DNA of 64,000 nt from a virus, in the IMG/VR virus record IMGVR_UViG_3300033155_001835, positions 2,603 through 66,602 of that record. One strand, 5' to 3'. Within the stretch, counting starts at the first letter, position 1; each line of letters opens with the position of its first letter. A program made the position numbers and the translations under genes. Under the pieces are notes generated by a model. It saw only the letters and a program-made list of their open reading frames with translations, was not told the origin of the DNA and made no database searches. Positions 1-19,232 of the stretch are shown one piece after another.

Positions 1-1
1 T

Positions 2-226
2 GGTGGTGTAAGTATTAAAGGTGTCTTCTCTAAACCTTCAGTTGTTCCTGTCTTTACCAAGAAGGTCTGGGACGCAGTTGGTAATATCATCCCCATTGTA
101 GAAGTCTTCTCTATGCCTACTGATGACAAGGGTGATCTTGGAGAAATGGTGTCCTACAAGAAGGATATTTACGTGAAACTAGAAGGTGGTTGGCATATTG
201 CTCAGGGAGAGTCTGATGCAACTTGA
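2..226 (+). CDS. 5'-truncated small ORF carrying tail-tube-like and decoration-protein-like peptides
   Basis: Frame 2 is open from the window edge to TGA 224-226 (GGVSIKGVFSKPSVVPVFTKKVWDAVGNIIPIVEVFS...GESDAT*). Not in the ORF track. Its 3' end overlaps the next ATG at 216. Confidence 0.75.
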   Translation, partial: GGVSIKGVFSKPSVVPVFTKKVWDAVGNIIPIVEVFSMPTDDKGDLGEMVSYKKDIYVKLEGGWHIAQGESDAT

Positions 227-509
227 ATTTAGCTTTGTTAGAGATGAGAAACCCTATAGAACTCGTGTATATGGCCGTCGCTGCGCGGCTCCTCTTTACG
301 ATATGACTGCTGATAATGAAGGATCTCTACCAAAGGTACACTCTATGAAGAAGGACATTTGTTCTGTTTGTGGTCACGAAGGCACAGACGGTCCTTGCAA
401 ACATCTCTATCCTTCTGTGCCTTCGTTTGCTCAACTAAAGAAGTGGATGCTAGAAACAATTCCTCAATTCCTGACACCTGATGGCAAACTGCAGGATGGT
501 AATATCTAA
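216..509 (+). CDS. Small QLEF-tag protein with prohead-protease-like ICSVC..G.C.H peptide
   Basis: Start reassigned to ATG 216 (GGGAGA upstream), giving MQLEFSFV like its neighbours. TAATG-coupled to the next ORF. Confidence 0.8.
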   Translation: MQLEFSFVRDEKPYRTRVYGRRCAAPLYDMTADNEGSLPKVHSMKKDICSVCGHEGTDGPCKHLYPSVPSFAQLKKWMLETIPQFLTPDGKLQDGNI

Positions 510-751
510 TGCAGACTGAGTTTTCTTTCGTGTTAGACGAGTCTGAGTGGTCTTGTCATCTTCATTCATTTGAATGTCATCCATACGCAATGTTCAAGAT
601 TGGTGACATTGTGCAGATCAGTTGTAACAATACGTTGCTTGGTCCTCATGATGCAGGTGACTATCGTTGGGCTGGCCGCGTTGTTTCTATTCAACATAAC
701 TTTCCTGGACCCTCTACAGCAATAGTTGATACGAGATTTAGATGCAATTAG
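509..751 (+). CDS. Small QLEF-tag protein (MQTEFSFV), possible hub-like peptide
   Basis: ORF track; shared N-terminal tag; overlapping start and stop codons. Confidence 0.8.
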   Translation: MQTEFSFVLDESEWSCHLHSFECHPYAMFKIGDIVQISCNNTLLGPHDAGDYRWAGRVVSIQHNFPGPSTAIVDTRFRCN

Positions 752-942
752 AACTAGGTTTTATAAGACAAGACTTACCTTGGGCTCTTAACGGACGCAT
801 TGCAGAACTGCAACGTGCAGGCTATACGCAGGCTTTTGTTGACAGATGGCTAGATGAATATTTTGAGTACCACCAAAGAATGATTTTTTCTGCCCTTGGC
901 TTCAGTGAAAAAGATATCCCTTTGGCAAAGAGGAAAGTCTGA
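742..942 (+). CDS. Small QLEF-tag protein (MQLELGFI) with portal-like peptide
   Basis: ORF track; tag; DEYFEYHQRMIFSALGFSEKDI aligns to the portal. Confidence 0.8.
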   Translation: MQLELGFIRQDLPWALNGRIAELQRAGYTQAFVDRWLDEYFEYHQRMIFSALGFSEKDIPLAKRKV

Positions 943-943
943 G

Positions 944-1219
944 ATGCAAATGGAATTTTCTTTTGTAAAGAAGTTAGAGCTACCACAACAAGTCGACCCG
1001 CCCTATCTTCCTTCTTCTATCCTTCAAGGAACTCCTACTATATGTACCTTCTCCACTAGTCTTATCTTTGAGGATACAATTGAAATAGGCAGTCCTGTAG
1101 CTCTGGACGAACAAGGTCGTGCTTACCAGGCAACATCTCACCAAATTCAAGATGTGATTGGTGTGGCAGCAGGTAAACCATGCCCTGGTATGATCAATGT
1201 GGTGATGAATGCAGACTGA
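944..1219 (+). CDS. Small QLEF-tag protein (MQMEFSFV) with capsid-decoration/cement-like segment
   Basis: Start reassigned from 896 to ATG 944 (GAGGAAAG upstream, follows the stop at 942). Contains IGSPVALDEQG...DVIGVA. Confidence 0.78.
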   Translation: MQMEFSFVKKLELPQQVDPPYLPSSILQGTPTICTFSTSLIFEDTIEIGSPVALDEQGRAYQATSHQIQDVIGVAAGKPCPGMINVVMNAD

Positions 1220-1403
1220 ATTTAACTTTGTACAACTAGAAAAACCTTACACGCCTAAAATACGCCTGTGGAAACATATGGACAAAATCCCTGAATACGA
1301 TGTAATAGGTATGTACAATGAAATGGCAGAAGACATGAAGAATTTTCATGGGATCGATATTAAAGCATACAAGCAGGAGTACTTGGGAGAATTCATCAAA
1401 TGA
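1209..1403 (+). CDS. Small QLEF-tag protein (MQTEFNFV) with capsid-like peptides
   Basis: ORF track; tag; YDVIGM and EMAEDMKNFHGID; ATGA-coupled to the next ORF. Confidence 0.8.
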   Translation: MQTEFNFVQLEKPYTPKIRLWKHMDKIPEYDVIGMYNEMAEDMKNFHGIDIKAYKQEYLGEFIK

Positions 1404-1690
1404 CAGACAAGCCACGAGCGCCCGCTACCCTTCTTATTCATTCTCTCATGGACACCCTTTGGGATCTTCAAGACAGAATGACCCACACAGGAGACTCCAA
1501 AGAAGGAATGAATGTACTAGAGGCACACGACTATTTCAGTCGAGAAAGTGACCAGGGGAGAGAATGCTCTTATGCTCTTAAAGCAAGATCCCTTTTTGCC
1601 AAACAAGACTACACAGAAATTAAAAAGCTATTTCTGGCTGCCCTTGACGCTTATCGCGCTTGTGAAGGAGACGACTTTGGCACTCCTTAA
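1400..1690 (+). CDS. Hypothetical protein (96 aa, no tag)
   Basis: GGGAGA RBS and ATGA overlap with the previous ORF. No recognisable motif. Confidence 0.7.
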   Translation: MTDKPRAPATLLIHSLMDTLWDLQDRMTHTGDSKEGMNVLEAHDYFSRESDQGRECSYALKARSLFAKQDYTEIKKLFLAALDAYRACEGDDFGTP

Positions 1691-2036
1691 ACCACCAGGT
1701 GAAAACCTAACTAAAGAAAACCCAGCATGGGTCACAGAGTACTATGCCACTAAAAACCAAGTCGGCGATGCTATAGACTGGCCTTCATTCAAACAGATGA
1801 AAGAAGACCAGCAACAGCAAATGCAGAACTGGAAAACAAAACTAAGCTCAGTCAAGATGGATGACATATTCGACGCTTTCTCTAATATAATGAACGCACC
1901 TCTAGCTTCTCCCACCATGGTAATGCACCCTGATACCTGGCAACTCATCTTGAAACACGAAGCATATATACGTATTCTAGAACTATCTACACAACTAGAG
2001 TTTCCTTTTGTAGAGGATGAACTAAAAAGGCCGTGA
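1677..2036 (+). CDS. Small protein with major-capsid-derived segment and C-terminal QLEFPFV tag
   Basis: Start probably TTG 1677 (AAGGAG 6 nt upstream) rather than 1548. SVKMDDIFDAF...TMVMHPDTW matches the MCP. Confidence 0.8.
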   Translation: MALLKPPGENLTKENPAWVTEYYATKNQVGDAIDWPSFKQMKEDQQQQMQNWKTKLSSVKMDDIFDAFSNIMNAPLASPTMVMHPDTWQLILKHEAYIRILELSTQLEFPFVEDELKRP

Positions 2037-2224
2037 TCGGTATCACTCTTTGTGATTTTGACTCTGTCCCTGGGGGCAAGGCAGCAACCTGGAAAGGTAA
2101 AGACCCCAAGGTATGCTATACTGTTGATGATTTGTATAATTTTTTGTACGATGAGTTTGCTGGCGCAGGTCAACTAGAGTTCAAGTTTGTAATATATGAG
2201 GAGTGCCCATGGCTGATGATGTAA
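2033..2224 (+). CDS. Small protein with C-terminal QLEFKFV tag
   Basis: GTGA overlap with the previous stop; tag at 2171-2191. Confidence 0.75.
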   Translation: MIGITLCDFDSVPGGKAATWKGKDPKVCYTVDDLYNFLYDEFAGAGQLEFKFVIYEECPWLMM

Positions 2225-3093
2225 ACATCTCTGAAAATAATAATCCCAAAACTGCTCTAGTAAAGCTTTCTGGGCAGATCATCAAGACAGACGGCTCTTC
2301 CTACGATTCCAACTTCTTTAAGTGTCTAGACCTACATCCTGATGACTATTCTGACATTTCCTACACTCCCAAAGAAGCAGCTAGTATTAGGTCACATCTC
2401 TTGCATCTTTCTACCGGAGCTTCTGCTGCTATTCCTCTGATCTGCGGAGGTACTGCCCATTGTCCATTTGCAGAGAGATGCCCATTTGTTCGGACGGACA
2501 ATATTCGCCGAGCAGCAGATCCGAAAGCAAAGCTTTGTACTCCGATTGGACGCCAGTGTCAGGTAGAAGTTAATCTACTGAGTCAGTGGACCAGAATGTT
2601 CATACACGAATACGAGATCGATGAAAAGAGCTTTTCTCAATTCACCATGGTCAGATTGCTTGCAGAGTGTGAGTTGATGTTGTGGAGGCTGAATAACAAC
2701 CTGGCAAAGCCTGAGAACGCAGAGTTGGTTGTAGATCAGGTAATAGGTGTGGACAAGGAAGGGAATGTCCTGACTCGCCAAGAGGTCTCAGCCTTCGTAG
2801 AGGCCAAAGAGAAGTATGAGAACAAGAAACTCAAATTGATCAAATTAATGGTTGGAGATCCACAGGAACAGTACAAGCGTGCCGCCGCCCTGCGTCAACG
2901 TGGGAAAGAGGATCCGTCTACCAATGCAGCGCAACTCCGCGCATCTCTTGATAGATTACAGAGAGAGGCTAAGGCCTTGGATTTAATGGTGAAAGAGGTA
3001 GAGGGAAACGTAATTGACGCGGAGGCTCTCCCAATAGAGGCAGAAGAAGTAAAGGATGATACCCTGTCCCCAGAGGACCTGCTCAAGGAGTAG
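2209..3093 (+). CDS. Cys-rich helical protein, candidate terminase small subunit
   Basis: GAGGAG RBS before ATG 2209. C..CPF..CPF..C..C cluster, helical core and charged C-terminal coiled coil, upstream of TerL. Function inferred from position only. Confidence 0.45.
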   Translation: MADDVNISENNNPKTALVKLSGQIIKTDGSSYDSNFFKCLDLHPDDYSDISYTPKEAASIRSHLLHLSTGASAAIPLICGGTAHCPFAERCPFVRTDNIRRAADPKAKLCTPIGRQCQVEVNLLSQWTRMFIHEYEIDEKSFSQFTMVRLLAECELMLWRLNNNLAKPENAELVVDQVIGVDKEGNVLTRQEVSAFVEAKEKYENKKLKLIKLMVGDPQEQYKRAAALRQRGKEDPSTNAAQLRASLDRLQREAKALDLMVKEVEGNVIDAEALPIEAEEVKDDTLSPEDLLKE

Positions 3094-3103
3094 TGGTATC
3101 AGT

Positions 3104-6100
3104 TTGGCTAACGCATTCATCCAACAGCTATATGCAGAAGGTATAGTTTCAGGAGAGTTATCAGCTCCTGAGTCTATTCGTGCGCGTGCAGCACATGTTG
3201 CGAAGCAGTCTGGATTCACCTTCGTTACAGAAGGGAAACCTCTTTTTCGAAAAGGGGAGAGATGGAAAGTAGGGTCTGTTAAATATAAGACTCATACTCG
3301 CTTCTATGCTCAGACACAAGCCATCAGAGAGAACTGGGAAGCCAGAGCTTCTTCTGTTTTTGGGAGACCTCTATCTACAGAACGTCTAGAGAACCTTACA
3401 GCAGTGATACAAGCCCACGAGGGCGCAGAAGCTTTCTATCTTGGCAAGACAGGACACCAGCGCTTTGGTAGTCATGCATCAGAGTCAGTCATCCAGAGTG
3501 AGCTAGAAGTAGCACGCAGGATGGGTCCACAGACAGCAGCAGATACTGTTAGATACAGAAGGTGGGAAAGTGAACAGCTAGTTGGTATGGCAACACATCA
3601 GACTCCATACTGGAACACATATAGACAAAGAATGGGATCTATTCTGGACGAGTTCGAAAGCCAAGGTGCTGTAGTAGGTTCAGGTTGGCAAAAGAGAGGA
3701 GGTCGAAGGTACCGTTCTGTTGCTGAACAGTTTAAGCTTGACCCAAATAAAAATGTAACACTTTTCCATGGTACTAACGAACTGTCTGCACAGAGAATTG
3801 CAAAGGGTGTGTTTGAACAAGGTGCAGATAGAAACTATGTTGAGTATCATCGTTTGGCTAAAGCTCAAGCAATTGAATCTTGGGCTGCTCCCCGTGGCCC
3901 TGTTGCCGGTGGGCTTATAGGTGACAGGCCACTATCTGCACTAGAGCAAAAACAGTTTCATACTCCAGCATTACTTGTCACCGAAATACCTTCTAAGTAT
4001 GTAGGAATACAGTCTGGCACCGGACAGTTTGATGAAAATATTGTATGGTCAGAGGGCTTGAAACAAGCAAAGCATAGAGTGGTTACTGGAGAAGAAGCCT
4101 TGCAGAGAATCTCTGAACAGAACTTAACTGTTCAGGAATACTTTGAGGAAGAGAGTTTCAAAAAGCAGGCGGCTGCGAAGTCTTCGGCTATGGCCCGTAC
4201 TGAAACTGCAATGGCCAAGGCAGGCAAAGCTACTGCATTAAACCCTGACGAGGCCTGGGCAGCCTTTCTTGACGAGAAGACTCCGGGTACTCCACGAGGC
4301 CTACCTCCTCCTGTAGAAGCTACTAGAGGCTTCAAACGTATATCTCGTTGGAAGATAGGACTAGGTGTAGGAGCAGCGGCCCTAGCGGGGTACGGAATTA
4401 CTAAACTACTCCCAGATGAGAACAGAGGTTACTACTCCTTTGATGGTTTCCAGCATGCTGGTACTGCACCAGGCATCCGTAGAGATATGACTCCATTTGG
4501 TTCCAAATATGACAGAGTGCGTAAGCTTGCAGGTATGATGGAAGAGACCTTTGAGATGATGACATCACGTAAGGGTTTCAAGCAGGCCTTACAGAGTGCA
4601 AAGCTAGTCAAGACATTTGAAGAGGGTTCCTTTGCTACAGCAGGTCTATATAGAGCTTCCTACAAGGGTAAGTCTTTTAGGTTTGTCAAGAAGGAGATCT
4701 CTCAGGAAGCAAAAGAAGAGCTGATGCGGAATGCAGCTAATCCAGAGAAGTATGCACGTGGTCTTGATCTGGAGCATGAAGCTAAGTTCCTTCGTGAGTT
4801 AGGAGAAACACCAGCGGCTCCTTCTCTTTATGGTCACTTCGATGATGCATTATATATGGAGTACATGCCAGGAGAGAGAATGGGTGACTGGGCAGTCAAT
4901 AACCCAGCTGCTGTTATGACTAGACAAGCCAAAGAAGATATAGAAGAGACAATCTACCAGGCAGCAAAGAAGGGTTTTACAAACCTAGATATCCATGGCG
5001 GTAATATTCTATTTGATCCAAAGACAGGCAGAGGTTCTTGGATTGACTGGGGCCTAGCTACACGAGAAGCGTCAGGTGTTGTAGGTCAGTCTTCTGAAAT
5101 GAGTGGTAAGTTTCTTGGTACCACTGGTGTCGCTGTACCGCTCCTTGAGCAGAAGGCTCATATGATGCAGGGCTCTATAAGAAAGGTATCCAGCTCTTTT
5201 GCTTCTGTACCAGCTGGTCCCCGCGCAAAGCTTTTAGCAGAACAGAACGCTTCAGAAGGTATGAAGCATGGTGGAATGGCTCAAAGAAAGCGTTCCTCTA
5301 TTACAGAGTTTGGTTCTAAATGGAAAGGTATGTTTGGTAGACTTTTTGGTGGCAAGTCAAAGGCAGCTTGGAAAGGAGGAGCCCGTCAGCTTCCAGAAAG
5401 ATTGCAAGTGGTAGCTAGAGATTGGCAGGGTGTTACTGCACGTCCAGAACGATTACAACAGTTTCTACATGCAGATATTGAGGCAAGTGGTCTCAGTAAT
5501 GCACTCCAAAAAAATCTTAAGAAAGAAGCAAGTCAGTTTCTAAAGGGAGCTAAAGCACAAGAACACTATGTCATTGCCAACCCAAGAGCGATCAAAGAAG
5601 GCGCGGCAGAAGAAGGTGTTTCTTACCTAGCTCGATATAAGGGTGTTATGCGCCATGAACGTTTTCACCAATCTATTGCTAAACATAAAGTTAGAGACTC
5701 TTTGAGACTTCTAAATGATTCTTCTTTTATCCCTGAGCATTTCCATAAATTTGCAGGCAAGAATGCTGCTGAAGAGTATTTTGCATATGCTATGGAACAA
5801 CCTTTAGTTCGTCGTCAGTCAGGATACAAACACGCTATGGCTCTCTTCAAGGGTAATGATGCTGCCTATACTCGTATTGAAGCGTTACACGGAAAAAATG
5901 TAGCATCGCAGTTGCGTAAGGTTTTAACAGATTTTGGTTCTGGCTATAGAGGATTGCAAGCTTCTTTTAGCAAGACAGTTGCTCAAGCTGCTAGACCAAG
6001 AGCAGGCATCAAATTGACCAATTCAGCTAAGGACCTTAAACTAGCACAAGAAAACATATGGGAATGGGCAAGAGGCGGCGGTCAACGTCACACTCGTCCA

Positions 6101-6148
6101 ACAGGCAGTCACGTACAACAACTATCTAACTTTGGAGGTATTCTATAA
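3104..6148 (+). CDS. Polyvalent protein: zincin-like, ADP-ribosyltransferase-like, Ser/Thr kinase, zincin
   Basis: Frame is open from 3056; likely start is TTG 3104 (TTGGCTAAC, as at 20003 and 37774). Motifs: AHEGAE; LFHGT..I..GVF; EGSFA..VKK..E..LYMEY..DIHGGNIL..IDWGLA; RHERFH..EEYFA. Confidence 0.75.
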   Translation: MANAFIQQLYAEGIVSGELSAPESIRARAAHVAKQSGFTFVTEGKPLFRKGERWKVGSVKYKTHTRFYAQTQAIRENWEARASSVFGRPLSTERLENLTAVIQAHEGAEAFYLGKTGHQRFGSHASESVIQSELEVARRMGPQTAADTVRYRRWESEQLVGMATHQTPYWNTYRQRMGSILDEFESQGAVVGSGWQKRGGRRYRSVAEQFKLDPNKNVTLFHGTNELSAQRIAKGVFEQGADRNYVEYHRLAKAQAIESWAAPRGPVAGGLIGDRPLSALEQKQFHTPALLVTEIPSKYVGIQSGTGQFDENIVWSEGLKQAKHRVVTGEEALQRISEQNLTVQEYFEEESFKKQAAAKSSAMARTETAMAKAGKATALNPDEAWAAFLDEKTPGTPRGLPPPVEATRGFKRISRWKIGLGVGAAALAGYGITKLLPDENRGYYSFDGFQHAGTAPGIRRDMTPFGSKYDRVRKLAGMMEETFEMMTSRKGFKQALQSAKLVKTFEEGSFATAGLYRASYKGKSFRFVKKEISQEAKEELMRNAANPEKYARGLDLEHEAKFLRELGETPAAPSLYGHFDDALYMEYMPGERMGDWAVNNPAAVMTRQAKEDIEETIYQAAKKGFTNLDIHGGNILFDPKTGRGSWIDWGLATREASGVVGQSSEMSGKFLGTTGVAVPLLEQKAHMMQGSIRKVSSSFASVPAGPRAKLLAEQNASEGMKHGGMAQRKRSSITEFGSKWKGMFGRLFGGKSKAAWKGGARQLPERLQVVARDWQGVTARPERLQQFLHADIEASGLSNALQKNLKKEASQFLKGAKAQEHYVIANPRAIKEGAAEEGVSYLARYKGVMRHERFHQSIAKHKVRDSLRLLNDSSFIPEHFHKFAGKNAAEEYFAYAMEQPLVRRQSGYKHAMALFKGNDAAYTRIEALHGKNVASQLRKVLTDFGSGYRGLQASFSKTVAQAARPRAGIKLTNSAKDLKLAQENIWEWARGGGQRHTRPTGSHVQQLSNFGGIL

Positions 6149-6543
6149 TGACAGTAGCTCGTGGTCTTTCAAGTGGTGTCAGTTGGTGGCGAAGTCGTTG
6201 GGCTGGTGCAATGGCTCAGGGTGTGGGTAAGTTTGCATATGGTGCTGGCAAGGCAGGATATCATGGCGCTGGCGGTATGGCTCAATGGGCTATGCGTAAA
6301 CCTAGTCATGCTATTGGTTTAGCAGGTGTTGGCGCGGGCCTTTATGGTGCATCTGCTGCTGTTGGTACAGGAGAGTCAGGTATGGATGCTGCTGAAGCAT
6401 CAGCTATTATGCAACAGCATGGTGGACCATCTACAGGGTTTGCACCAGGTATGGGAGCCATGAAGAGACAGAGTGATAGGTCTATGTTTATGGAAAGTAC
6501 ATTCGGCCTTACACAAGGACTACATAGAGGGAGGCATAGATAA
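6148..6543 (+). CDS. Gly/Ala-rich basic protein, possibly virion-internal/ejected
   Basis: GGAGG RBS, TAATG coupling, glycine-zipper-like GLAGVGAGLYGA. Confidence 0.7.
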   Translation: MTVARGLSSGVSWWRSRWAGAMAQGVGKFAYGAGKAGYHGAGGMAQWAMRKPSHAIGLAGVGAGLYGASAAVGTGESGMDAAEASAIMQQHGGPSTGFAPGMGAMKRQSDRSMFMESTFGLTQGLHRGRHR

Positions 6544-7205
6544 TGGCTACTGTTTGGCCTCTAGGACCCACACCTGAGCCGTTGAAGTTTCAATCTCCTG
6601 GTTTTTGGCAACAAAGAGCTAATCGTAAAGCAATGGGTCGGTATGGTGCTGTTACGTCTCCTGGGCGTATAGGGAGGGCTTCTGGTGCTGTACGTAGCTA
6701 TATGGGATCCAAAGTACATCGTAGTGGTGTAAGATGGGCGAAAGAAGCATACGGTATTGGTTCAAAAGGAGTTGGCCGTGTTGGTGGATACGCATTCGCA
6801 GCCTACATGGCTTACGAAGGTTATCAACAAGACGGAGCATGGGGCGCTGCTAAAGGTTTAGCCCGAGGCGCTGCAGAGACATATGCAATGGGAGCAGTAT
6901 GGGGAGCTATTGGTGCTCCTGTAAAAGCGGTAGGTGCAGTGGCTGCAACCATGCTTGCAGGTCATGCGTTTTACAATATGGCAGCAGGCGGTCCTTCTCC
7001 TCAACAATTCCTTGCTAGACCGTACGTCCGTGAACATCAGCGAAAACATGCTAAACTTGAGATGGGCAGGCCTGTGCTTGACCAGTTTGGCAGTTTATCT
7101 ACTATGAGGTCTAGAAGTGTATCTGCTATACAAAATTCAAAGATTAACGGTAGAACAGGGTTAGGTAATGAGGCAGCTCTCATGTACCGGCCTTACTTTC
7201 GTTAA
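6543..7205 (+). CDS. Gly/Ala-rich basic protein
   Basis: ORF track; hydrophobic Gly/Ala helices; C-terminal TMRSRSVSAIQNS..LGNEA. Confidence 0.75.
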   Translation: MATVWPLGPTPEPLKFQSPGFWQQRANRKAMGRYGAVTSPGRIGRASGAVRSYMGSKVHRSGVRWAKEAYGIGSKGVGRVGGYAFAAYMAYEGYQQDGAWGAAKGLARGAAETYAMGAVWGAIGAPVKAVGAVAATMLAGHAFYNMAAGGPSPQQFLARPYVREHQRKHAKLEMGRPVLDQFGSLSTMRSRSVSAIQNSKINGRTGLGNEAALMYRPYFR

Positions 7206-7216
7206 GGAGTAATCAT

Positions 7217-7732
7217 ATGCCTACAATGTTACAAAGAGGGTTTGGCTGGGGTGCAGATCGCTTATTCGGTCTTACAACGGCTATGGGTAAAGCTGGTGGT
7301 CTGACTTCTGCAGCAGGATCCGTTGGTGCTAGACAAACAGCAATGGCTTATGGTGCCCGTGGTGCCTCTGTAGGTTCTCAAGCATTTGCAGGTATTGCTG
7401 GCGCAAACCGTGCTGGTGCTCGTGCAGTAGTCGGCGGTGTTGCTGGTGGTACATATGGTGCCTTTTCAGAGAATACTAGCATTATGGGTGGCGCTGCAAT
7501 GGGCGCTGGCCTCTTTGCTGGCGCTCCTCTTGCAGTTACCAGAGGTGGATCAAGACTCAGAGCTATGGGCGGCATTTATGGTCAGGCTCGTGGCATGGGA
7601 ATGGGCCGAGGCCAAGCTGCTTGGGGTGTTGCTGCTGGTCAAGGCAGAAATGCAAGTCAATATATTGGTAATACTGCAAACCGTGCTCTGGGCAGAATAA
7701 ACAGCAGTCTTAAAGCTAAAGCTGGATTCTAG
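7217..7732 (+). CDS. Gly/Ala-rich basic protein
   Basis: AAGGAG RBS; GxxxG-rich segments (VGGVAGGTYGA, GGAAMGAGLFAGA). Confidence 0.75.
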   Translation: MPTMLQRGFGWGADRLFGLTTAMGKAGGLTSAAGSVGARQTAMAYGARGASVGSQAFAGIAGANRAGARAVVGGVAGGTYGAFSENTSIMGGAAMGAGLFAGAPLAVTRGGSRLRAMGGIYGQARGMGMGRGQAAWGVAAGQGRNASQYIGNTANRALGRINSSLKAKAGF

Positions 7733-7740
7733 GAGCGAAT

Positions 7741-9741
7741 GTGCTACTTGACCTCAATCAATGTGATCCAACCTGTAAGAGCTGTGTCTCTCTTTATTTT
7801 AAGAAGCACAAAGTAAAGCAAGGTACTGAAAAGCCTTTCAGAATTACTTGTGAAGGTATTCCTCTTAATTATATCCCTGACAGTATATTAGCAGCAATTG
7901 GTGGCGACCCCGAACTGGCTATCTCTACTTATGATCCTGTCGTATGGGCTCGTAAGTTTCTAGACTGGCATTGTGAAGATCCAGATGGTGAAGTTTGGAA
8001 AAGAAAAACGCTTGAGCATAGTCTACCTCCAGAAGCCGCATCCTATGATAAAGAGAGAGCCGAAGCTGGTAAGTCTATTTTCCATAGACCTTATCAGGCT
8101 GACATGCTCCGTTGTGCCGCAAAGTATAAAGCGTTCCGTATTGGCCGTCAGGCTGGCAAGACAGAGACTCTTTGTATTGCTATTTTGTGGGCGCTATATA
8201 CACACGAAAAGTTTAAGGTTGTTTTAATTTGTCCTTATCAAGCACAGGTAGAAATGATCTTTGGTCGTCTAGAAGACCTAATTTCCTCTAGCTCGCTACT
8301 GAGTGATGCTATCGCAAGAAACGCAAAAGCTCCTAACTTTCAGATCAAGCTCTTTAATGGTTCTCGTGTAAATGGCTTCACGGCTGGTACACGTTCTGGC
8401 CAAGATGCTGGTGCTGCACGTGGTCAGCCTGCAAACATGCTAGTGTTCGATGAGGCCGACTATCTTTCTCCTGGTGACATTCAGGCAACTCTAGCTACGA
8501 TTGTTAACTTCGATAAAGCTACTGTATGGATGTCCTCAACACCAACGGGTCGTAGAGAGAAGTTTTACGAATCTTGCAACAATCGAATTTATCGTGAGTT
8601 CTACTACTCCTCTATGGTCAACCCCAACTGGACTCCTGAGAAGGATGAGTTCTTCAAGTCTGAATATACAGACGAACAGTACAGACACGAGATTCTTGCT
8701 GAGTTTGGCGAGCAAGAGGAAGGTGTATATCAGGTTAAGTATGTAGAGGCTGCACAGGCAGAGTATGAATATGCAGAGATGACGCCGCAGCCTACATGGA
8801 CCTATATGATTGGTGTGGACTGGAACGACGTGAAGATTGGTACCACTATTGCAATCGTTGGTCACAACCCTCATGACGGTCTTTTTTATATCGTAGATAA
8901 GCATACTATTAGTCGTGCAGAACGTACTCAGTTGGCAGCATGTAATAAGATTGCAGAGCTGAACCGTCTGTGGCGTCCAGCAGCTATTTATGTAGACCAA
9001 GGTTATGGAGCTACACAGATTGAAGTACTCCAAGGCTTTGGCGCTACTGAGCTGCGCACCAAGGGTCCGAACCATCCTGATGCTCGTCTACGTAATATTG
9101 TTAAGGGTTATGACTTCGGTAGCAGTATCGAAATTCGTGACCTCTTCACCAAGCAGGCTATCAAGAAGCCAGCCAAGCCATTCTTGGTAGAGACTTCTGT
9201 TCGTCGCTTTGAGCAACAGCAAATGCGCTATCCTGCTTCTGATGAGAAGTATACTGCACAGCTTCTTGGTTATGTTATCCAACGTGTTTCTATCACAGGT
9301 CGCCCAGTCTTTGAACAGCAGAACGAGAAGGCTGGAGACCACTTGCTTGATGCTGTCAACTTAGCTCTTGTTGCATTCGCTCTTGAGAAGAGTGAGTTTG
9401 GTAAACCAACTTACATGCAACACATTGCTTTTGGTGGTCAATTTGGAGATAATAAGAAACAGCGACCAATTACCGATGCAAGAGATAATCGTCCGAAACA
9501 AGGAAGGGCAGCGGTGATGACTGATGGTAATCAACCTATTATCCCTTCTGCTCAGGGTGACTTGCCTGCTGCAAACCATTCTGTAGAATCAGGCATAGGT
9601 CTTTGGAATTGGCCTGGATTCGGCCATGATGCTCCAAAGCCAAGAGTACGCACATTAGGTGAAGCGTTTAATCAAGCACAAGAAAGAGTCACAGGGAGAC
9701 CTTCTCGTAGACGCCCCCGCCCACGTCGTGCTAAATTCTAG
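7741..9741 (+). CDS. terL: Terminase large subunit
   Basis: RPYQ Q-motif, Walker A GRQAGKT, Walker B LVFDEAD, coupling motif STPTG, RNase H-like nuclease GVDWN..DQGYG..DHLLDA. Confidence 0.95.
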   Translation: MLLDLNQCDPTCKSCVSLYFKKHKVKQGTEKPFRITCEGIPLNYIPDSILAAIGGDPELAISTYDPVVWARKFLDWHCEDPDGEVWKRKTLEHSLPPEAASYDKERAEAGKSIFHRPYQADMLRCAAKYKAFRIGRQAGKTETLCIAILWALYTHEKFKVVLICPYQAQVEMIFGRLEDLISSSSLLSDAIARNAKAPNFQIKLFNGSRVNGFTAGTRSGQDAGAARGQPANMLVFDEADYLSPGDIQATLATIVNFDKATVWMSSTPTGRREKFYESCNNRIYREFYYSSMVNPNWTPEKDEFFKSEYTDEQYRHEILAEFGEQEEGVYQVKYVEAAQAEYEYAEMTPQPTWTYMIGVDWNDVKIGTTIAIVGHNPHDGLFYIVDKHTISRAERTQLAACNKIAELNRLWRPAAIYVDQGYGATQIEVLQGFGATELRTKGPNHPDARLRNIVKGYDFGSSIEIRDLFTKQAIKKPAKPFLVETSVRRFEQQQMRYPASDEKYTAQLLGYVIQRVSITGRPVFEQQNEKAGDHLLDAVNLALVAFALEKSEFGKPTYMQHIAFGGQFGDNKKQRPITDARDNRPKQGRAAVMTDGNQPIIPSAQGDLPAANHSVESGIGLWNWPGFGHDAPKPRVRTLGEAFNQAQERVTGRPSRRRPRPRRAKF

Positions 9742-10856: not shown

Positions 10857-12371
10857 ATGGCAAATGCGACTACACCCTCAAGTGCTAAAAACGTAAAGCC
10901 CCGCTTTGACTTCAGCGGAGTAGATCCTTCTACTGTGAATGTAGACACTCTTGATCTAGGCACTAACCAATCGGATTGTGCTATTATCGCTCAGACGTTC
11001 GAGCGCGGTGCTCATTCTACTCCTTCAGAAGCTGCAGTTTTTGCTACCATTAGTCGCACGTTACAAAACAACAAAGCTTTCGCTATCTCTTCTAGTGCCT
11101 CTTTCAAAACATACTTAGGTGCTCCACAAGAAGATGCAGCTACTGTTGCTCAACAATCAAACCAGTATGCTGCCGCAGGCGCTAGTATCTCTGGTGGCGG
11201 CGGTTCTAGTGCACAGACTCAACAGTTTATGCAGTCCTTAAATATAGGCACTCAACAACAGACAACACATGGAGATTCGTTTGGAGAGAAATTACTAGAT
11301 AAAGCACGCGAATGTATTCCTTGTGGCGTACGTTTGTCTGCATTCTTAGAACTCCAGCCTAATGTTGATTTATTGGGTAGTTTTGAAACTTATTTAAAAA
11401 CAGCTCTTGGGAACTTGCAAAGTGTTGCTGATCTACTAAACAACTTTGACACCTATGGAGACTTGTGCGCCCTGCTCAACCTTTTCTCCTTTATGTGTAT
11501 CCCTGACCTACAACGTATTATTGCTTTGTTTATGGCCCTCTTTATCCTTGAGGTACCAGAGCTGGATGGTCTTATTGGTTTGTTAACCTCTCTAGTCATG
11601 CCTATCTTCGCTCCTATCCTTGTAGGTATCTCTACTCTCTTGGATCAGTTTGTAGTACTTATTACTAATCCACTTGCCTGTGTAGTAGATGCAATCAACC
11701 TACAGATAAAAAAGCTTGGCTTCGAATCTACTCGCGAGGGTAGAAGGTTAAAGAAGGATCTTAAGGACGCTTCGACGAAAAGCAAAGAAGTTACAAAAGA
11801 GATTAACAACGGTATCAAAGAAATGAAAAAGCAGTTGCAGGAGGGTATACAGAAAGTTAAAGCAAGGATGAGTTTCTACACCCAGCAGATTAATGCAATG
11901 TTGGGTGAAATGGGAGGCGGCGATGCTGCCTACCTCCAAGCCAAACTTAAGGTATTGCAATTGGTTCGTCTGATTGCTTTTGTTACTGCTATTATTAACG
12001 CTCTAACCAGAGGCCATGCTGCTTGTTCTAATACAGGCAAGAATGCAGAGGCTCCTGAGATTGAGAACTTTTATCAAAACTTCCTTAATCCACAAGCCCC
12101 TTTCAATATCTATCTCGATAATAATGGTAATTTAAAGATCGATGAAGATTTTGGCGACCTCGGTGATGAACTAGAGGACTTGAATGAAACAGGAAATGTG
12201 TTTCAATTTGAGGGGGAGTCTTTGCTGGACACTACAGTGCTGCAAGCTGTTGAGGAGGTAACTGTCTCGTTGACATCACCTACACAGGTCGCAGTTCCTT
12301 GCAAACTGGAGACAACTGTTTCTGATGTAGGAAAGGTCAATCAGTGGATGGAACAACTTAACCAATCATGA
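10857..12371 (+). CDS. Hypothetical protein with hydrophobic helices and coiled coil
   Basis: 504-aa ORF; CIPC/CIPD motifs, long hydrophobic stretch, K/E coiled coil; immediately upstream of the portal. Confidence 0.75.
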   Translation: MANATTPSSAKNVKPRFDFSGVDPSTVNVDTLDLGTNQSDCAIIAQTFERGAHSTPSEAAVFATISRTLQNNKAFAISSSASFKTYLGAPQEDAATVAQQSNQYAAAGASISGGGGSSAQTQQFMQSLNIGTQQQTTHGDSFGEKLLDKARECIPCGVRLSAFLELQPNVDLLGSFETYLKTALGNLQSVADLLNNFDTYGDLCALLNLFSFMCIPDLQRIIALFMALFILEVPELDGLIGLLTSLVMPIFAPILVGISTLLDQFVVLITNPLACVVDAINLQIKKLGFESTREGRRLKKDLKDASTKSKEVTKEINNGIKEMKKQLQEGIQKVKARMSFYTQQINAMLGEMGGGDAAYLQAKLKVLQLVRLIAFVTAIINALTRGHAACSNTGKNAEAPEIENFYQNFLNPQAPFNIYLDNNGNLKIDEDFGDLGDELEDLNETGNVFQFEGESLLDTTVLQAVEEVTVSLTSPTQVAVPCKLETTVSDVGKVNQWMEQLNQS

Positions 12372-14749
12372 AAATCTTTGGCTTCGATATCAACTGGAAC
12401 AAAGCACCAGCAGATCAGGTAATCGTTCGCACGGTTGCACCTGCAACAATTCCTGTCTCTAAAATCCCTACTGTTAAAATTGGTTCTCTTTCTTATGCAC
12501 AACAGTTTGCGCAAGGACGCGGCCATTTTCAGTCTGCAGAGTATGACTTATCCGAAATTGGTAAGATAGAAGATACTGATGGCTTTGTCCGTCAGGCTTT
12601 CAAAAAGAAAGAAGGCTTGATGTTCAAAGAGGGCGTTGGATGTAAGGGAGCTAACAAACGTACAGTCCGTTATTACAAGACTCGTATGGCTCAAATAGCT
12701 CAGGCATCTAGTGTTCCCACAAGTATTCTATTGAAGCGAGTGGCGCGTAGTCTTATTCGTACCTCAAACGCCTTTCTTGTTAAGGTTCGTGACCCAAACA
12801 AGTCTGGTGGTAGTATGCGTACTACTGCTGATGGTAAGCGTTTAAAGCCAATTGCTGCCTACTTCCCAGCTGCACCAGAAACAATGCGTGTAGATTTGGA
12901 CGCAAATACAGGCAAAATACGTAAATGGCGACAAGTTCTTCCAGATGGACGTTGGAAAGACTATCAACCAGAGAATGTTGTTCATTTCGCAATCGACAAG
13001 CGAGAGGGCTTTTTCTTTGGAGTTCCTTCTATTATTCCTGTTATTGATGATATTCGTGCCCTTCGCCAGATCGAAGAAAATATTGAACTACTTTTATATC
13101 AACATCTCTTTCCTCTTTTCCATTACAAGGTAGGTACTGAAACAGCTCCTGCTGGATATACCGAGGAAGGAGTAAGGGAAGTTGACGCAATAGAGACTCA
13201 GATTAGCATCATGCCTTCTGAGGGCGCTATCGTTACTCCAGAGCGTCATGAGATTAAAGCTATTGGCTCTGAGGGTAGAGCTGTTAGAGCTGAAGGTTAT
13301 CTAACCCACTTCAAGAAACGTGTCTTTGCAGGTCTAGGCGTCTCTTCTGTAGACATGGGCGATGGTGATACAACCAACAGAGCTACTGCTCAAACCCTTT
13401 CTCGTGCAATCATTGATGCTGTTAAGGCTATCCAAGATGATCTTGAAGCACAATGGAACCAGCATGTCATTTCCGAACTACTTCTTGAAGGCGACTTTGG
13501 TGCTCGTGTTCTTGAAGAAGAGGATATGGTCTTCTTACAGTTCACTGAAATTGATATTCAGAACAAGATGGAGATTGAGAAGCATGCTATGGAGCTATGG
13601 AAGGCCAGCTTGTTGACATTTGATGAAGCCAGAGGCGCAATGTCTCATGAGCCTATTCCTCTTCCAGAACATGGTGAAGAGCAGGATCCAAAGAAGTACC
13701 CTGAATGGTTCTCTATTTACTTCAAGCTTATCGAAGAGCCTCTTAACCTTATTCGTGCCGTCGATGAACCTTTCAGTATGGCTGCAAGAGCTATGGCTGA
13801 AGCACGTGGTGCGGCTATGACCGAGAAGGGCAGACAAGAGCAGATTGCAGGTAAGAAAGAAGAGGTTAAAGCTCAAGCAGAAGAGGATAGGAAGACCAAG
13901 ATCGCTGTTGTTAAAGCAAAGCCAGCCTCGCCTCCTTCTACTAAGAAGAAAGATCACTACCTCTCTACTGCTTTCAAGGACCTTGAGTCTGATACTGTTG
14001 ATCGTATCCAAACTAGCATCACCTCCAGAGGAGTTGTTGATGCTGAATACCTTCTATCACTAGCTCGTATATGGGCTGCGGATACTGTAGAGAAACTACA
14101 TTCTCTAGCTGTGGGTCAGTTAATCCTTGGTTTTAATGATCAAACTAACATGCAAGCATCGAACGCTGAAGTCTTACTTTCTGTAGGTCGTCAGATCATT
14201 TTGGACCGTATTGACTACCGTATCAACAAACTGGTTGTTAATACTGTGAACCTTGTCTCCCGCCGAGTTGACGAGAACCTTGGTGATGTTAAACTGGCGG
14301 AAGCATTGCCGGATGTAGCCCGCGAATTGCATATTGCATTTGATGCAGTTAGATATCGTACGGACTTCATCTGGGATGTAGAGATTCGCAAGGCCTACGC
14401 TTTCGGTCGTGTCCTTGGTATGAGACATCTAGGCGAGTATGGTTTTGAATATCATGCCCATTCAGATAGTTGTGAACGTTGTGCTGCAATAGATGGCCGA
14501 GTAATGCCTGCCATGGCTGCGGGGATCGACGACGTACCTCCTCTTCATCCAAACAGTCGGATGAAGTTTAAGATCGTTAGAGAAGACCCAAGCATTGTAG
14601 ATGTAACTGACGCAACAAAAGAAGGTATTGAACAGATCATGGTACCGTGTCCTGAGTGTGGCAAGTCAGCAACCTGGCAATCGAAAGCAGCAAATTACTA
14701 TTGTGCGGCATGTTCACATTCATTTGTTGAAAAGGATATCAAGGAGTAA
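12368..14749 (+). CDS. Portal protein fused to MuF-like domain and Zn ribbon
   Basis: Position between TerL and protease; portal-type segments (NAFLVKVR, VVHF..FFGVP, FAGLGVS, LTFDEAR). C-terminal CERC..DG..PPLHPNSR and CPEC..CAAC. Confidence 0.88.
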   Translation: MKIFGFDINWNKAPADQVIVRTVAPATIPVSKIPTVKIGSLSYAQQFAQGRGHFQSAEYDLSEIGKIEDTDGFVRQAFKKKEGLMFKEGVGCKGANKRTVRYYKTRMAQIAQASSVPTSILLKRVARSLIRTSNAFLVKVRDPNKSGGSMRTTADGKRLKPIAAYFPAAPETMRVDLDANTGKIRKWRQVLPDGRWKDYQPENVVHFAIDKREGFFFGVPSIIPVIDDIRALRQIEENIELLLYQHLFPLFHYKVGTETAPAGYTEEGVREVDAIETQISIMPSEGAIVTPERHEIKAIGSEGRAVRAEGYLTHFKKRVFAGLGVSSVDMGDGDTTNRATAQTLSRAIIDAVKAIQDDLEAQWNQHVISELLLEGDFGARVLEEEDMVFLQFTEIDIQNKMEIEKHAMELWKASLLTFDEARGAMSHEPIPLPEHGEEQDPKKYPEWFSIYFKLIEEPLNLIRAVDEPFSMAARAMAEARGAAMTEKGRQEQIAGKKEEVKAQAEEDRKTKIAVVKAKPASPPSTKKKDHYLSTAFKDLESDTVDRIQTSITSRGVVDAEYLLSLARIWAADTVEKLHSLAVGQLILGFNDQTNMQASNAEVLLSVGRQIILDRIDYRINKLVVNTVNLVSRRVDENLGDVKLAEALPDVARELHIAFDAVRYRTDFIWDVEIRKAYAFGRVLGMRHLGEYGFEYHAHSDSCERCAAIDGRVMPAMAAGIDDVPPLHPNSRMKFKIVREDPSIVDVTDATKEGIEQIMVPCPECGKSATWQSKAANYYCAACSHSFVEKDIKE

Positions 14750-17969: not shown

Positions 17970-19232
17970 ATGGAATTCAATCTCAAAGACGCTTCCCATG
18001 ACGAGTTTAGGTGGCTATGGGACAACAACGGAAGCTATGGTCCTGACAAGGACAACGTTGTTAAGCTTAAGGATGCTCTAAGCGTACCTAATGCTCCAAT
18101 GCTGTTCCCTAAGGTGATTCAGAATATCGTTAAGGAAGCTGCTGAGCCTCTATTGGTTGCTACTTCTTTGCTACAAAGAATCAACTATAGCTATGGACAG
18201 ACTATTACCTTCCCCGCAGTCGGTGCACTAGTTGCAGCAGACATCGCTGAAGGTCAAGAGTACCCAGAGCGTAGCCTCCAGATGGGAGGAGCAACTGTCA
18301 CGGCAACTATCGGTAAGTCCGGTCTTGCAGTGAAGGTAACGGATGAAATGATTCGTTACAGCCAGTTCGACGTAATTGGCATGCATCTCCGTGCTGCTGG
18401 TAGGGCTCTTGCAAGGCATAAGGAAGTTAAGTGCTTTAACTACATCCGTGCGATGGGTGTTACTGCATTCGATAACCTTGAGCCAAGCAACTCTGTGTTC
18501 GGTGTTACAACTGGACGCGACATGAATGGTGCTCCAAACGGTTCTGTTACTATGGATGATGTCTTCGACGCATTTGCTCAGGTCATTACTCAGGGTTTCA
18601 TGCCTAATACTCTCTTGATGCACCCTCTCACATGGACTATGTGGGTTAAGGACGCACAGCTCAGGGCATTTGTCCAGGCAAACGGTGGCGGAGTCTTCTT
18701 CGCTAACTGGACTGGCAACCCAATGGGTCGCGCTCCATGGGACAACAGTAATCAAGGTGGTCTAGGTACTGCTTCTGGTCAAATGCTTCTGCCAGGACAG
18801 AACTTGAGCGGTGGAGCTACACCTCATGGTCAGTCTGCTAGCCCACTATTGAACTACCCACAAACTCTAAATAGCGGTCCAGTGCTGCCGAGCTACATGA
18901 ACGTTCCGTTCCGTATTATCGTCAGCCCATATGTGCCTTACGATCCACGTCGTAGGCTCACGGACATCTATATGTTTGACGGTTCCGAGCTTGGCGTACT
19001 TATCGTAGATGAGGATGTCACCACGGAAGAGTGGGATGACCCAAAGGTAGATATCAGGAAGATCAAGCTGCGTGAGCGTTACGCAATTGGTATCCTGAAC
19101 GAGGGTCAGGGCATTGCTGTTATGCGCAACGTACATGTTGTACCTAACGACATCGTTCTACCTGCTCAGGCACAGGTTACGGTATCTGGTTCTATTCAGC
19201 CAATTCCACCTTCAACACCACTAAGCCTGTAA
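17970..19232 (+). CDS. Major capsid protein (HK97 fold)
   Basis: IAEGQEYPE, KSGLAVKVTDEMI, LLMHPLTW, IKLRERY; strong RBS; followed by a terminator. Confidence 0.92.
   Translation: MEFNLKDASHDEFRWLWDNNGSYGPDKDNVVKLKDALSVPNAPMLFPKVIQNIVKEAAEPLLVATSLLQRINYSYGQTITFPAVGALVAADIAEGQEYPERSLQMGGATVTATIGKSGLAVKVTDEMIRYSQFDVIGMHLRAAGRALARHKEVKCFNYIRAMGVTAFDNLEPSNSVFGVTTGRDMNGAPNGSVTMDDVFDAFAQVITQGFMPNTLLMHPLTWTMWVKDAQLRAFVQANGGGVFFANWTGNPMGRAPWDNSNQGGLGTASGQMLLPGQNLSGGATPHGQSASPLLNYPQTLNSGPVLPSYMNVPFRIIVSPYVPYDPRRRLTDIYMFDGSELGVLIVDEDVTTEEWDDPKVDIRKIKLRERYAIGILNEGQGIAVMRNVHVVPNDIVLPAQAQVTVSGSIQPIPPSTPLSL

Follow-up and report, generated by a model that had tools for sequence, protein, structure and literature searches.

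A Small Gene of an Uncultured Jumbo Phage Carrying a Probable Fragment Paralogue of the Major Capsid Protein and a Short Terminal Tag

The Small Gene and Its Capsid-like Segment

The gene considered in the present work lies within a stretch of 64,000 nucleotides (hereafter the window), corresponding to bases 2603-66602 of the 66.6-kb IMG/VR record IMGVR_UViG_3300033155_001835, for which CheckV gives a completeness of 35%. It is a small gene whose predicted product contains a segment similar to the core of the major capsid protein (MCP) encoded by the same phage, followed by a short hydrophobic tag that recurs in the neighbouring open reading frames (ORFs), with which the gene forms an array of nine ORFs. 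The features on which the analysis rests are the following:

1677-2036, + strand: small gene of 119 amino acids (aa) holding the MCP-like segment; TTG start, AAGGAG motif, gene call P0001
1845-1955, + strand: MCP-like core, 37 aa by BLASTP, 16/37 identical; the 31 aa noticed earlier correspond to 1848-1940
1992-2012, + strand: C-terminal tag QLEFPFV, then EDELKRP and the stop; one of eight pattern matches
17970-19232, + strand: MCP gene, 420 aa; Pfam Phage_capsid_4 (E 3.8e-19) and PHROG major head protein families

Read in the frame of ORF 1548-2036, positions 1848-1940 translate to SVKMDDIFDAFSNIMNAPLASPTMVMHPDTW, and residues 192-222 of the MCP (nt 18543-18635) are SVTMDDVFDAFAQVITQGFMPNTLLMHPLTW. 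The two had been aligned without gaps, with 15 identical residues out of 31, in a reading of this DNA made from the sequence only (hereafter the sequence-only reading); the letters were checked and the identities counted by hand, and the figure was borne out. The BLASTP alignment of the segment with the MCP is likewise gapless, with 16/37 identical and 24/37 positive residues (E 2e-8, in a single comparison), and the Smith-Waterman score of 92 was reached by none of 2000 shuffles of the ORF (mean 30.6, standard deviation 4.7, maximum 66), so that the match is far beyond chance. With some related MCPs the alignment extends to 47 residues (20/47 identical, one gap). When the whole 66.6-kb record was searched in six frames, the ORF retrieved only itself and the MCP (E 1.5e-7). 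The tag stands, as had been stated, 17 residues downstream of the segment: it begins at nt 1992, 51 nt past the W codon at 1938-1940.

The resident MCP scores 70.4 bits against the Pfam family Phage_capsid_4 (PF25209); the search of the small ORF against Pfam matched no family at all, even at E <= 10, and by profile it is therefore not a Phage_capsid_4 protein. We regard it as a fragment paralogue of the MCP and not as a capsid protein.

The probable start of the gene is TTG 1677: an AAGGAG motif (1665-1670) lies 6 nt before this in-frame candidate start, and the public gene call for the record (product P0001) has 119 aa, which is the length expected from it. An alternative in-frame ATG at 1797 would yield a form of 79 aa. 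The longer frame, 1548-2036, opens with GTG and overlaps the preceding conserved gene, and its first part is thus unlikely to be translated. A codon log-odds score, trained on 17 long genes of the window, is +0.31 bits per codon in the frame of the small gene and +0.35 for the 93-nt core, and it is negative in the five other frames; for reference, the score is 0.47-0.58 for real genes kept out of the training and 0.26 for the conserved 296-aa gene located downstream. All nine array ORFs show phage-like codon usage, each in its own frame only. They are co-directional, abut or overlap by a few bases and are tightly packed with the head genes; they are therefore probably co-transcribed with the head module. 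Neither promoter-like sites (4 versus 5.8 expected) nor terminator-like sites (3 versus 2.6 expected) are enriched in positions 1-3200. Taken together, these data lead us to consider 1677-2036 a real small gene of an uncultured jumbo phage. A minus-strand ORF at 1742-2173 was rejected as a real gene because of its negative codon usage and because it is the + strand that encodes the conserved motif; a remnant of a homing endonuclease or of an intron was discarded as well, no such domain having been found in the region.

Origin of the Segment

The small ORF matches 120 of 120 clade MCPs, always at the same place and with 25-50% identity. Ranked by score, the resident MCP is only 86th among these 120; the fragment thus cannot have been copied recently from the neighbouring gene, and the term "copy of the major capsid protein" used in the sequence-only reading has to be replaced by that of an old partial paralogue, about equally distant from the 120 clade MCPs. 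The matched stretch is the most invariant part of the clade MCPs; many of the 33 core columns are identical in 102/102 sequences (those matching an anchor pattern among 122 stored proteins longer than 300 aa).

At the nucleotide level, the segment and the MCP gene share 53 of 93 positions (57%), and the identities at codon positions 1, 2, and 3 are 18, 24, and 11 of 31, respectively; this is the pattern expected of an old duplicate maintained at the protein level, as we believe the segment to be. A silent cassette for gene conversion of the MCP was ruled out, given that a sequence with 57% nucleotide identity and third positions near chance is too diverged for homologous recombination.

A Small Protein Family in a Variable Slot

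The genes bordering the site of the small gene are the following:

1400-1690, + strand: 96-aa gene without the tag, conserved throughout the clade; bounds the variable slot on the left
2209-3093, + strand: conserved 296-aa gene; 32 IMG/VR loci have homologues at 27-53% identity; bounds the variable slot on the right

A HMMER search of 1.84 billion representatives retrieved one small relative, P0124 (77 aa), identical at 22/49 residues (pairwise E 1e-14), and the subsequent profile search added a second small metagenome relative, P0125 (129 aa). The resulting three-member profile, applied to 34 related IMG/VR records, matched the MCP gene in 32 of them and gave a second, non-MCP match in two, G006 and its near-identical counterpart G007, where it falls in an open frame of 161 aa. 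Immediately downstream of this frame comes the homologue of the 296-aa gene (53% identity), the same arrangement as in the window. The alignment of the 296-aa protein, used as an IMG/VR query, retrieved 32 loci, and a profile search of their six-frame ORFs found the family only in G006/G007 (whose members were part of the profile used), the next match being a weak one in G002 (E 0.33). The latter corresponds to an 83-aa ORF in the same slot, after the 96-aa gene, which has a recognisable core and ends with GQQEFCFG. None of 1000 shuffles reached the score of the own ORF with either the G002 or the G006 member; the pairs G006-G002 (23/1000) and P0125-G002 (14/1000) are weak. G002 is thus to be kept as an uncertain member, resting mainly on the match with the own ORF, on its position, and on its tag.

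Among the other searches, a word-indexed protein search with the ORF returned only the ORF itself, an IMG/VR scan with P0124 found nothing, and in the ESM Atlas the only leads, to short "phage capsid" clusters (0.88), stayed below the threshold. An IMG/VR scan with the ORF gave a single, spurious match, which falls in a T4-like locus but on its wrong strand.

A proline occupies, in four of the five members, a site where 102/102 MCPs have a glycine. The core identities between members (18/33 for own-P0124, 20/33 for P0124-P0125, and 14/33 for G006-P0125) can be compared with those between the members and the MCP consensus, ranging from 10 to 16 of 33. The shared proline and the closer relationship of the members to each other than to the MCP speak for a single old capture followed by divergence. 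These data outline a rare, fast-evolving family of at least five members in four or five lineages. The members whose context is known sit where the structural module begins, in a variable slot located between the 96-aa and the 296-aa genes; in most of the 24 listed loci (which leave out the duplicates L187 and L191 and the most distant or cut loci L211-L216), a gene of the 96-aa type directly adjoins the 296-aa gene. The family gene is absent from 29 of the 32 related loci and has therefore to be considered accessory, which corrects the earlier reading.

The comparison with G006 also bears on selection. The two phages share 79% of the MCP residues and 54% of those of the 296-aa protein, and four-fold degenerate sites are identical at 38.7% in the MCP gene (168 sites) and at 24.1% in the 296-aa gene (54 sites), the chance level being, as a rough figure, 0.23. 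Synonymous divergence is thus near saturation. The flanks of the small ORF are no longer alignable between the two phages and the core still is (10/22, 0/1000 shuffles); since a neutral sequence would have lost the motif at such a divergence, its persistence points to selection. Together, the codon positions, the phage-like codon usage, and the near-saturated synonymous sites argue for protein-level selection on the segment. The claim that the fragment "remains under selection" can thus be retained for the core motif, on the basis of the intact syntenic orthologues in G006/G007 and G002 and of the codon positions, within a gene that is itself accessory; neither frameshifts nor decay were found wherever the gene exists in relatives (G006/G007 and G002 being intact).

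The Terminal Tag

The pattern Q.E[FL].F[VI], searched in the six frames of the record, matches eight times, always on the + strand and always between nt 2535 and 4773 of the record (2.3 kb), and nowhere else. A looser DNA pattern of the tag gave 5 matches versus 0.03 expected. Six of the copies follow an ATG that abuts or overlaps the preceding stop, and in these N-terminal tags the conserved stretch covers about 14 residues (M-Q-x-E-F-x-F-V-x-x-E/D-x-P-W/Y). The two other copies, one of which belongs to the small gene 1677-2036, are near the C-terminus, so that in this ORF the tag is not a leader. The tag is C-terminal in the own, G006, and G002 members as well; P0124 and P0125 start with MEQLE[IF]D. 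As judged from the five sequences, the family keeps an MCP-like core together with a short hydrophobic end tag of the form Q-x-x-F/L-x-F/L-V/I.

In G006 (locus L182, G006:1-5000, positions 2429-3693), three consecutive ORFs end with a basic run plus GRQLVFAFIREL, GRQLRLYLGEESA, or GKQIPFLFITRP, the tags reading QLVFAF, QLRLYL, and QIPFLF. The alignment of a 147-aa tagged ORF of G006 to the large kinase-like protein of the same phage takes in the tag and covers residues 48-150 of the latter (E 6e-4); the first of the three tagged ORFs is a partial duplicate of the N-terminal region of this large protein (E 6e-4). The corresponding features of the window are:

3056-6148, + strand: ORF of a 1030-aa protein with a weak ABC1 kinase-like match, between the 296-aa gene and the terminase gene
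3206-3247, + strand: tag-like element KQSGFTFVTEGKPL, residues 51-64 of the 1030-aa protein; match to the regular expression

The large-protein homologue of G006 aligns QALSVQFSEEFEPEW with KQSGFTFVTEGKPL.

The variation among the tags falls on third codon positions and on the x codons, and between phages the tag is kept as a peptide with different codons; the tag therefore acts as a peptide and not as a DNA site. An action at the DNA or RNA level was rejected on the same grounds.

An IMG/VR scan with the DNA pattern of the tag retrieved 109 stretches with a single match each, and a protein-level recount on the stored loci revealed no other array; the DNA pattern was also absent from five large related records, and tags of the G006 type would not fit it. 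In a complete 194.6-kb relative (locus L184, G001:60000-69000, positions 1307-3135), three out of four consecutive small ORFs end with another common C-terminal motif, [GN]RF[GK]xL[LV]; runs of end-tagged mini-ORFs with lineage-specific tags may be a clade-wide habit.

The Other Array ORFs and Their Neighbours

The remaining ORFs of the array are the following:

1-226, + strand: first array ORF, 98 aa, with its 3' part in the window and its start 70 nt upstream of it; tag MQREFDFI
216-509, + strand: array ORF with the N-terminal tag MQLEFSFVRDEKPY; codon usage +0.37 in frame
509-751, + strand: array ORF with the tag MQTEFSFVLDESEW
742-942, + strand: array ORF with the tag MQLELGFIRQDLPW
944-1219, + strand: array ORF with the tag MQMEFSFVKKLELP
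1209-1403, + strand: array ORF with the tag MQTEFNFVQLEKPY
2033-2224, + strand: 63-aa ORF with the near-C-terminal tag GQLEFKFVIYEECPWLMM, then the stop

The first array ORF is a patchwork of the tag, a 19-aa tube-like piece, and a 16-aa piece resembling a 466-aa protein encoded beside the MCP. The former piece, PWGRSYNKFGGVSIKGVFS, which ends at about nt 31, shares 13 of 19 residues with positions 7-25 of a 226-aa protein (0/2000 shuffles); the latter, TKKVWDAVGNIIPIVE (56-103), shares 12 of 16 with positions 12-27 of the 466-aa protein (0/2000 shuffles). The 226-aa protein, encoded right after the tail sheath, may be tail-tube-like on account of its position. A weaker resemblance concerns ORF 509-751, residues 32-77 of which align to residues 360-407 of the 466-aa protein (13/48, E 0.003, 1/300 shuffles). 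The remaining six array ORFs gave no such match on the contig, which represents 35% of the genome, and none in Pfam. Hence, the statement that the array payloads derive from virion genes applies to the small gene and to two other array ORFs, no match being available for the other six; what emerges suggests a family of mini-proteins built from pieces of virion proteins plus a common tag.

After each of the two pieces of the first ORF there is a short VFS-x-P repeat (DNA repeat 14-44 / 95-125). Bases 1-2530 of the record, upstream of the window, contain mainly minus-strand ORFs and no tag; the array therefore begins at the strand switch.

In most related loci, a homologue of the 96-aa gene immediately precedes the 296-aa gene. 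The 96-aa protein gave a weak match with TPR_12 (E 0.012, below the cut-off) and could be a partner of the tagged proteins; it carries the motif G-x-D/E-C-x-Y-x-x-K-A-x-x-x-F. A match between its ORF and MCP residues 221-234 (10/2000 shuffles) was not taken as real, because this ORF belongs to a separate conserved family. The 296-aa protein matched no Pfam or PHROG family. The similarity of the 1030-aa protein to ABC1 (E 1.7e-4, 21.3 bits) falls short of the Pfam cut-off of 22.9 bits; this protein could be a head-internal or ejected enzyme.

Structural Models

The 79-aa form was modelled with AlphaFold2 from the five-row family alignment, with a mean predicted local distance difference test (pLDDT) score of 71.5. 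The model contains a helix (residues 2-32), a loop (33-44), a second helix (45-66), and an unstructured, low-confidence tail with the tag. In the structure model of the MCP, the region corresponding to the segment shows a helix (195-207), a strand (214-217), and two further helices (219-225 and 229-237), after a long helix (136-162). According to the sequence-only reading, the segment should map on a helix-strand-helix of the A domain: this secondary structure is present in the MCP model, and its placement in the A domain is what we infer from the usual order of HK97-fold elements, since the model is poor and a solved relative was not found by sequence.

Possible Roles of the Mini-Proteins

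The descriptive part of our interpretation, i.e., the existence of an MCP-derived small-gene family with a core and a tag and with neighbours containing virion pieces, appears to us very probable. The best explanation that we can offer as a whole adds to this description the docking of the mini-proteins to the phage head, and it is put forward tentatively; the mechanism of head targeting, taken by itself, is possible and rather doubtful. According to it, the unstructured tag would be a docking peptide that gathers the mini-proteins at one shared hub, for which the assembling prohead or its core is the likeliest candidate, and the MCP-like helix-loop-helix would act by mimicry, contacting either the MCP or a protein that interacts with it.

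The internal proteins of phage T4 are described (PMC3012670, PMC7411985) as diverse and as having in common only a capsid-targeting sequence (CTS), a 10-20-aa N-terminal propeptide that loads them into the scaffolding core. The second paper (PMC7411985) also reports that large head proteins of the giant phage SPN3US carry long N-terminal propeptides and its protease a C-terminal one, all of which have been proposed to direct proteins into the prohead. A targeting peptide at either end of a protein has therefore a precedent. The mini-proteins resemble IPI-III and Alt of T4 in being small, otherwise unrelated, fast-evolving proteins of a large myovirus, which share one short terminal peptide and vary between relatives; a short terminal peptide common to unrelated small proteins, as for a CTS, is what was found here (eight tags in 2.3 kb). 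They differ in that the tag is N-terminal in six ORFs, C-terminal in the small gene, in G006, and in G002, and internal in the large protein; moreover, the payloads here contain pieces of the phage's own virion proteins, which is not known for the T4 internal proteins. The tag-like element within the first ~65 residues of the 1030-aa head-module protein is comparable with the N-terminal propeptides of the SPN3US head proteins; unlike them, it is known from genes alone, and the mini-ORFs seem to borrow only the short element.

A further term of comparison is CpmB of SaPI1, which PMC5644958 describes as a small protein competing with the scaffold of the helper phage for a site on the capsid protein. 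CpmB is encoded by a satellite and competes with the scaffold, whereas the piece described here comes from the MCP core and belongs to a gene of the phage itself. Full-length MCP paralogues arise in large phages by duplication of the capsid gene; in contrast to these, only ~37-47 of the 420 residues are kept here, with no capsid match in Pfam.

Several data weigh against this interpretation. The position of the tag varies, being N-terminal, C-terminal, or ~50 residues inside the large protein. A prohead protease was not found, the best hint being a 628-aa ORF with E 0.096; no cleavage motif is common to the own and G006 tags, and the glutamate at tag position 4 is lost in G006. The structure model of the MCP is poor (mean pLDDT 38.7, too low for a fold search), and a profile search of PDB sequences retrieved no solved relative of the MCP. 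As to the family, the 29 loci without a member do possess the flanking 296-aa gene, a tblastn search of the ORF against 50,697 GenBank phage records gave no match at E <= 1, and of 361 candidates from a metagenome scan with the family profile only four were confirmed, all of which were MCP genes. The separate capture of MCP pieces by different lineages would be less probable than a single capture and still keeps some likelihood; for the G002 member, resemblance to the other members does not exceed that to the MCPs. Finally, the mini-proteins are known from their genes alone, and both their expression and their presence in virions are predictions; a search for sequencing runs over window 1-3100 listed none, and none with RNA.

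A variant of the same description is that the array is a cassette of self-mimics, i.e., tagged pieces of the capsid core, of the tail-tube N-terminus, and of both ends of a head-module protein, which would mimic virion subunits and act as antagonists of host sensors for capsid and tail proteins or as regulators or poisons of capsid and tail assembly; we consider it rather unlikely.

The tag could otherwise be a sliding-clamp-binding motif, by which the large protein and the mini-proteins would be anchored on the host beta clamp, for instance so as to block host replication or to couple late functions to replication; the MCP-like part would then be incidental or serve another purpose. The clamp-binding consensus is given in PMC4564189 as a pentamer QLxLF or a hexamer QLxLxL. 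All eight own tags (Q[LTMR]E[FL]xF) have Q as the first residue and F/L as the fourth and the sixth, the G006 tags QLVFAF, QLRLYL, and QIPFLF have a similar shape, and the tags lie at the extreme ends of the proteins or, according to the model, in an unstructured tail; phage proteins that use clamps in late transcription are also reported, for T4 (gp45) and phage Mu. The likeness to proteins with such motifs stops at the short Q-led hydrophobic end peptide. Conservation goes beyond the hexapeptide (V/I at position 8, an acidic residue at 11, P-W/Y at 13-14), which a clamp motif does not need; L occupies position 2 in only four of the eight own tags, and the genes are located in the head module. 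Moreover, the beta-clamp domain PF02768 was found in none of five related records, one of which is a complete genome, so that the target would have to be the host clamp. Co-folding of the 79-aa form with DnaN of E. coli (DPO3B_ECOLI, as a stand-in), performed without controls, gave 0.26, 0.47, and 0.00, with a median below the mark of 0.34, and weighs neither for nor against binding. We consider the clamp a quite improbable target.

We would assign a similarly low likelihood to the idea that the mini-proteins are decoys or antagonists, occupying host immune sensors of virion proteins without activating them. Abortive-infection sensors detect capsid, tube, and head-type proteins, and the pieces found here come from the MCP core, from the N-terminus of a tube-like protein, and from a head-module protein; in addition, the genes share with many anti-defence genes an accessory status, fast evolution, and restriction to particular lineages. 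However, nothing ties the mini-proteins to any defence system, and a fragment with the sensed epitope would be expected to trigger the sensor rather than to block it. Judging from their location and orientation, the genes are probably expressed late, together with the virion genes, at a stage at which the real triggers are already abundant, and a literature search for capsid decoys, covering titles and abstract openings, showed no precedent.

It might also be argued that the array is recombination debris, that is, functionless pieces of late genes copied into a hyperplastic region by illegitimate recombination and open by chance, with the tag as what is left of a junction that was duplicated. 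The patchwork composition of the first ORF, the partial duplication of the N-terminal region of the large protein in G006, the absence of the family from most relatives, and the lack of homologues for most array ORFs would fit this scenario, which is nevertheless disfavoured by the signals of selection: the core and the tag are kept between lineages near synonymous saturation, the identities per codon position (18, 24, and 11 of 31) are those given above, nine ORFs have phage-like codon usage in frame only, the tags vary on third positions and x codons, and the ORFs abut with overlapping stop and start codons. We therefore hold debris to be very unlikely.

Lastly, a poison of capsid assembly directed at co-infecting related phages, which would co-fold or co-assemble with the competitor's MCP through the helix-strand element and spoil its capsids, could act broadly, as the segment is the most invariant part of the clade MCPs, and mimicry of assembly proteins that redirects capsids is known from CpmB of SaPI1 (PMC5644958), but the own MCP has the same invariant residues with no sign of how it would be spared and binding to the MCP is purely hypothetical; we consider this explanation highly improbable.

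Among the papers listed by literature searches on capsid fragments in jumbo phages, capsid decoys, phage clamp motifs, capsid-targeting sequences, and the protease of 0305phi8-36, none showed tagged mini-genes made from a phage's own virion pieces. If the tag does target the head, it would represent a new capsid-loading signal in widespread environmental phages; should the mimic instead affect host sensors or assembly, this would be a new use of fragments of a phage's own structural proteins, and a self-mimic system, if true, would be of a modular kind for which no phage example is described. Much of the coding capacity of jumbo phages that is still unexplained consists of small accessory genes; in this case the accessory gene can be traced to a defined piece of a capsid protein, apparently kept by selection with a common terminal tag, and the ~14-residue tag and the ~40-residue capsid mimic offer a concrete handle.

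The Phage and Additional Observations

All the large ORFs of the window are on the + strand; those used to place the phage, apart from the MCP gene, are:

7741-9741, + strand: large terminase
12368-14749, + strand: portal
23155-25038, + strand: tail sheath

Three jumbo phages, Bacillus 0305phi8-36, Moorella MTATph1, and Acinetobacter ME3, have major head proteins with 31-37% identity to the MCP (36% for both the Bacillus and the Moorella phage), and the MCP has numerous relatives at 70-89% identity in JGI, ENA, Logan, and Tara metagenome data. On the basis of the gene content and of these MCP relatives, the record can be regarded as a fragment of an uncultured jumbo myovirus belonging to a widespread environmental clade.

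Between the gene of the large protein and the terminase gene (window 6148-7732) there are three Gly/Arg/Ala-rich ORFs of 131-220 aa, with no family match; G001 has similar Gly-rich ORFs at the equivalent place. In G006/G007, an ORF with an HCxxGxxRS motif (reverse strand 1641-2174 of locus L183, G007:60000-67196, and also L182, 25-285) lies upstream of the small-ORF region; judged by eye, it presumably resembles a Cys-based protein phosphatase.

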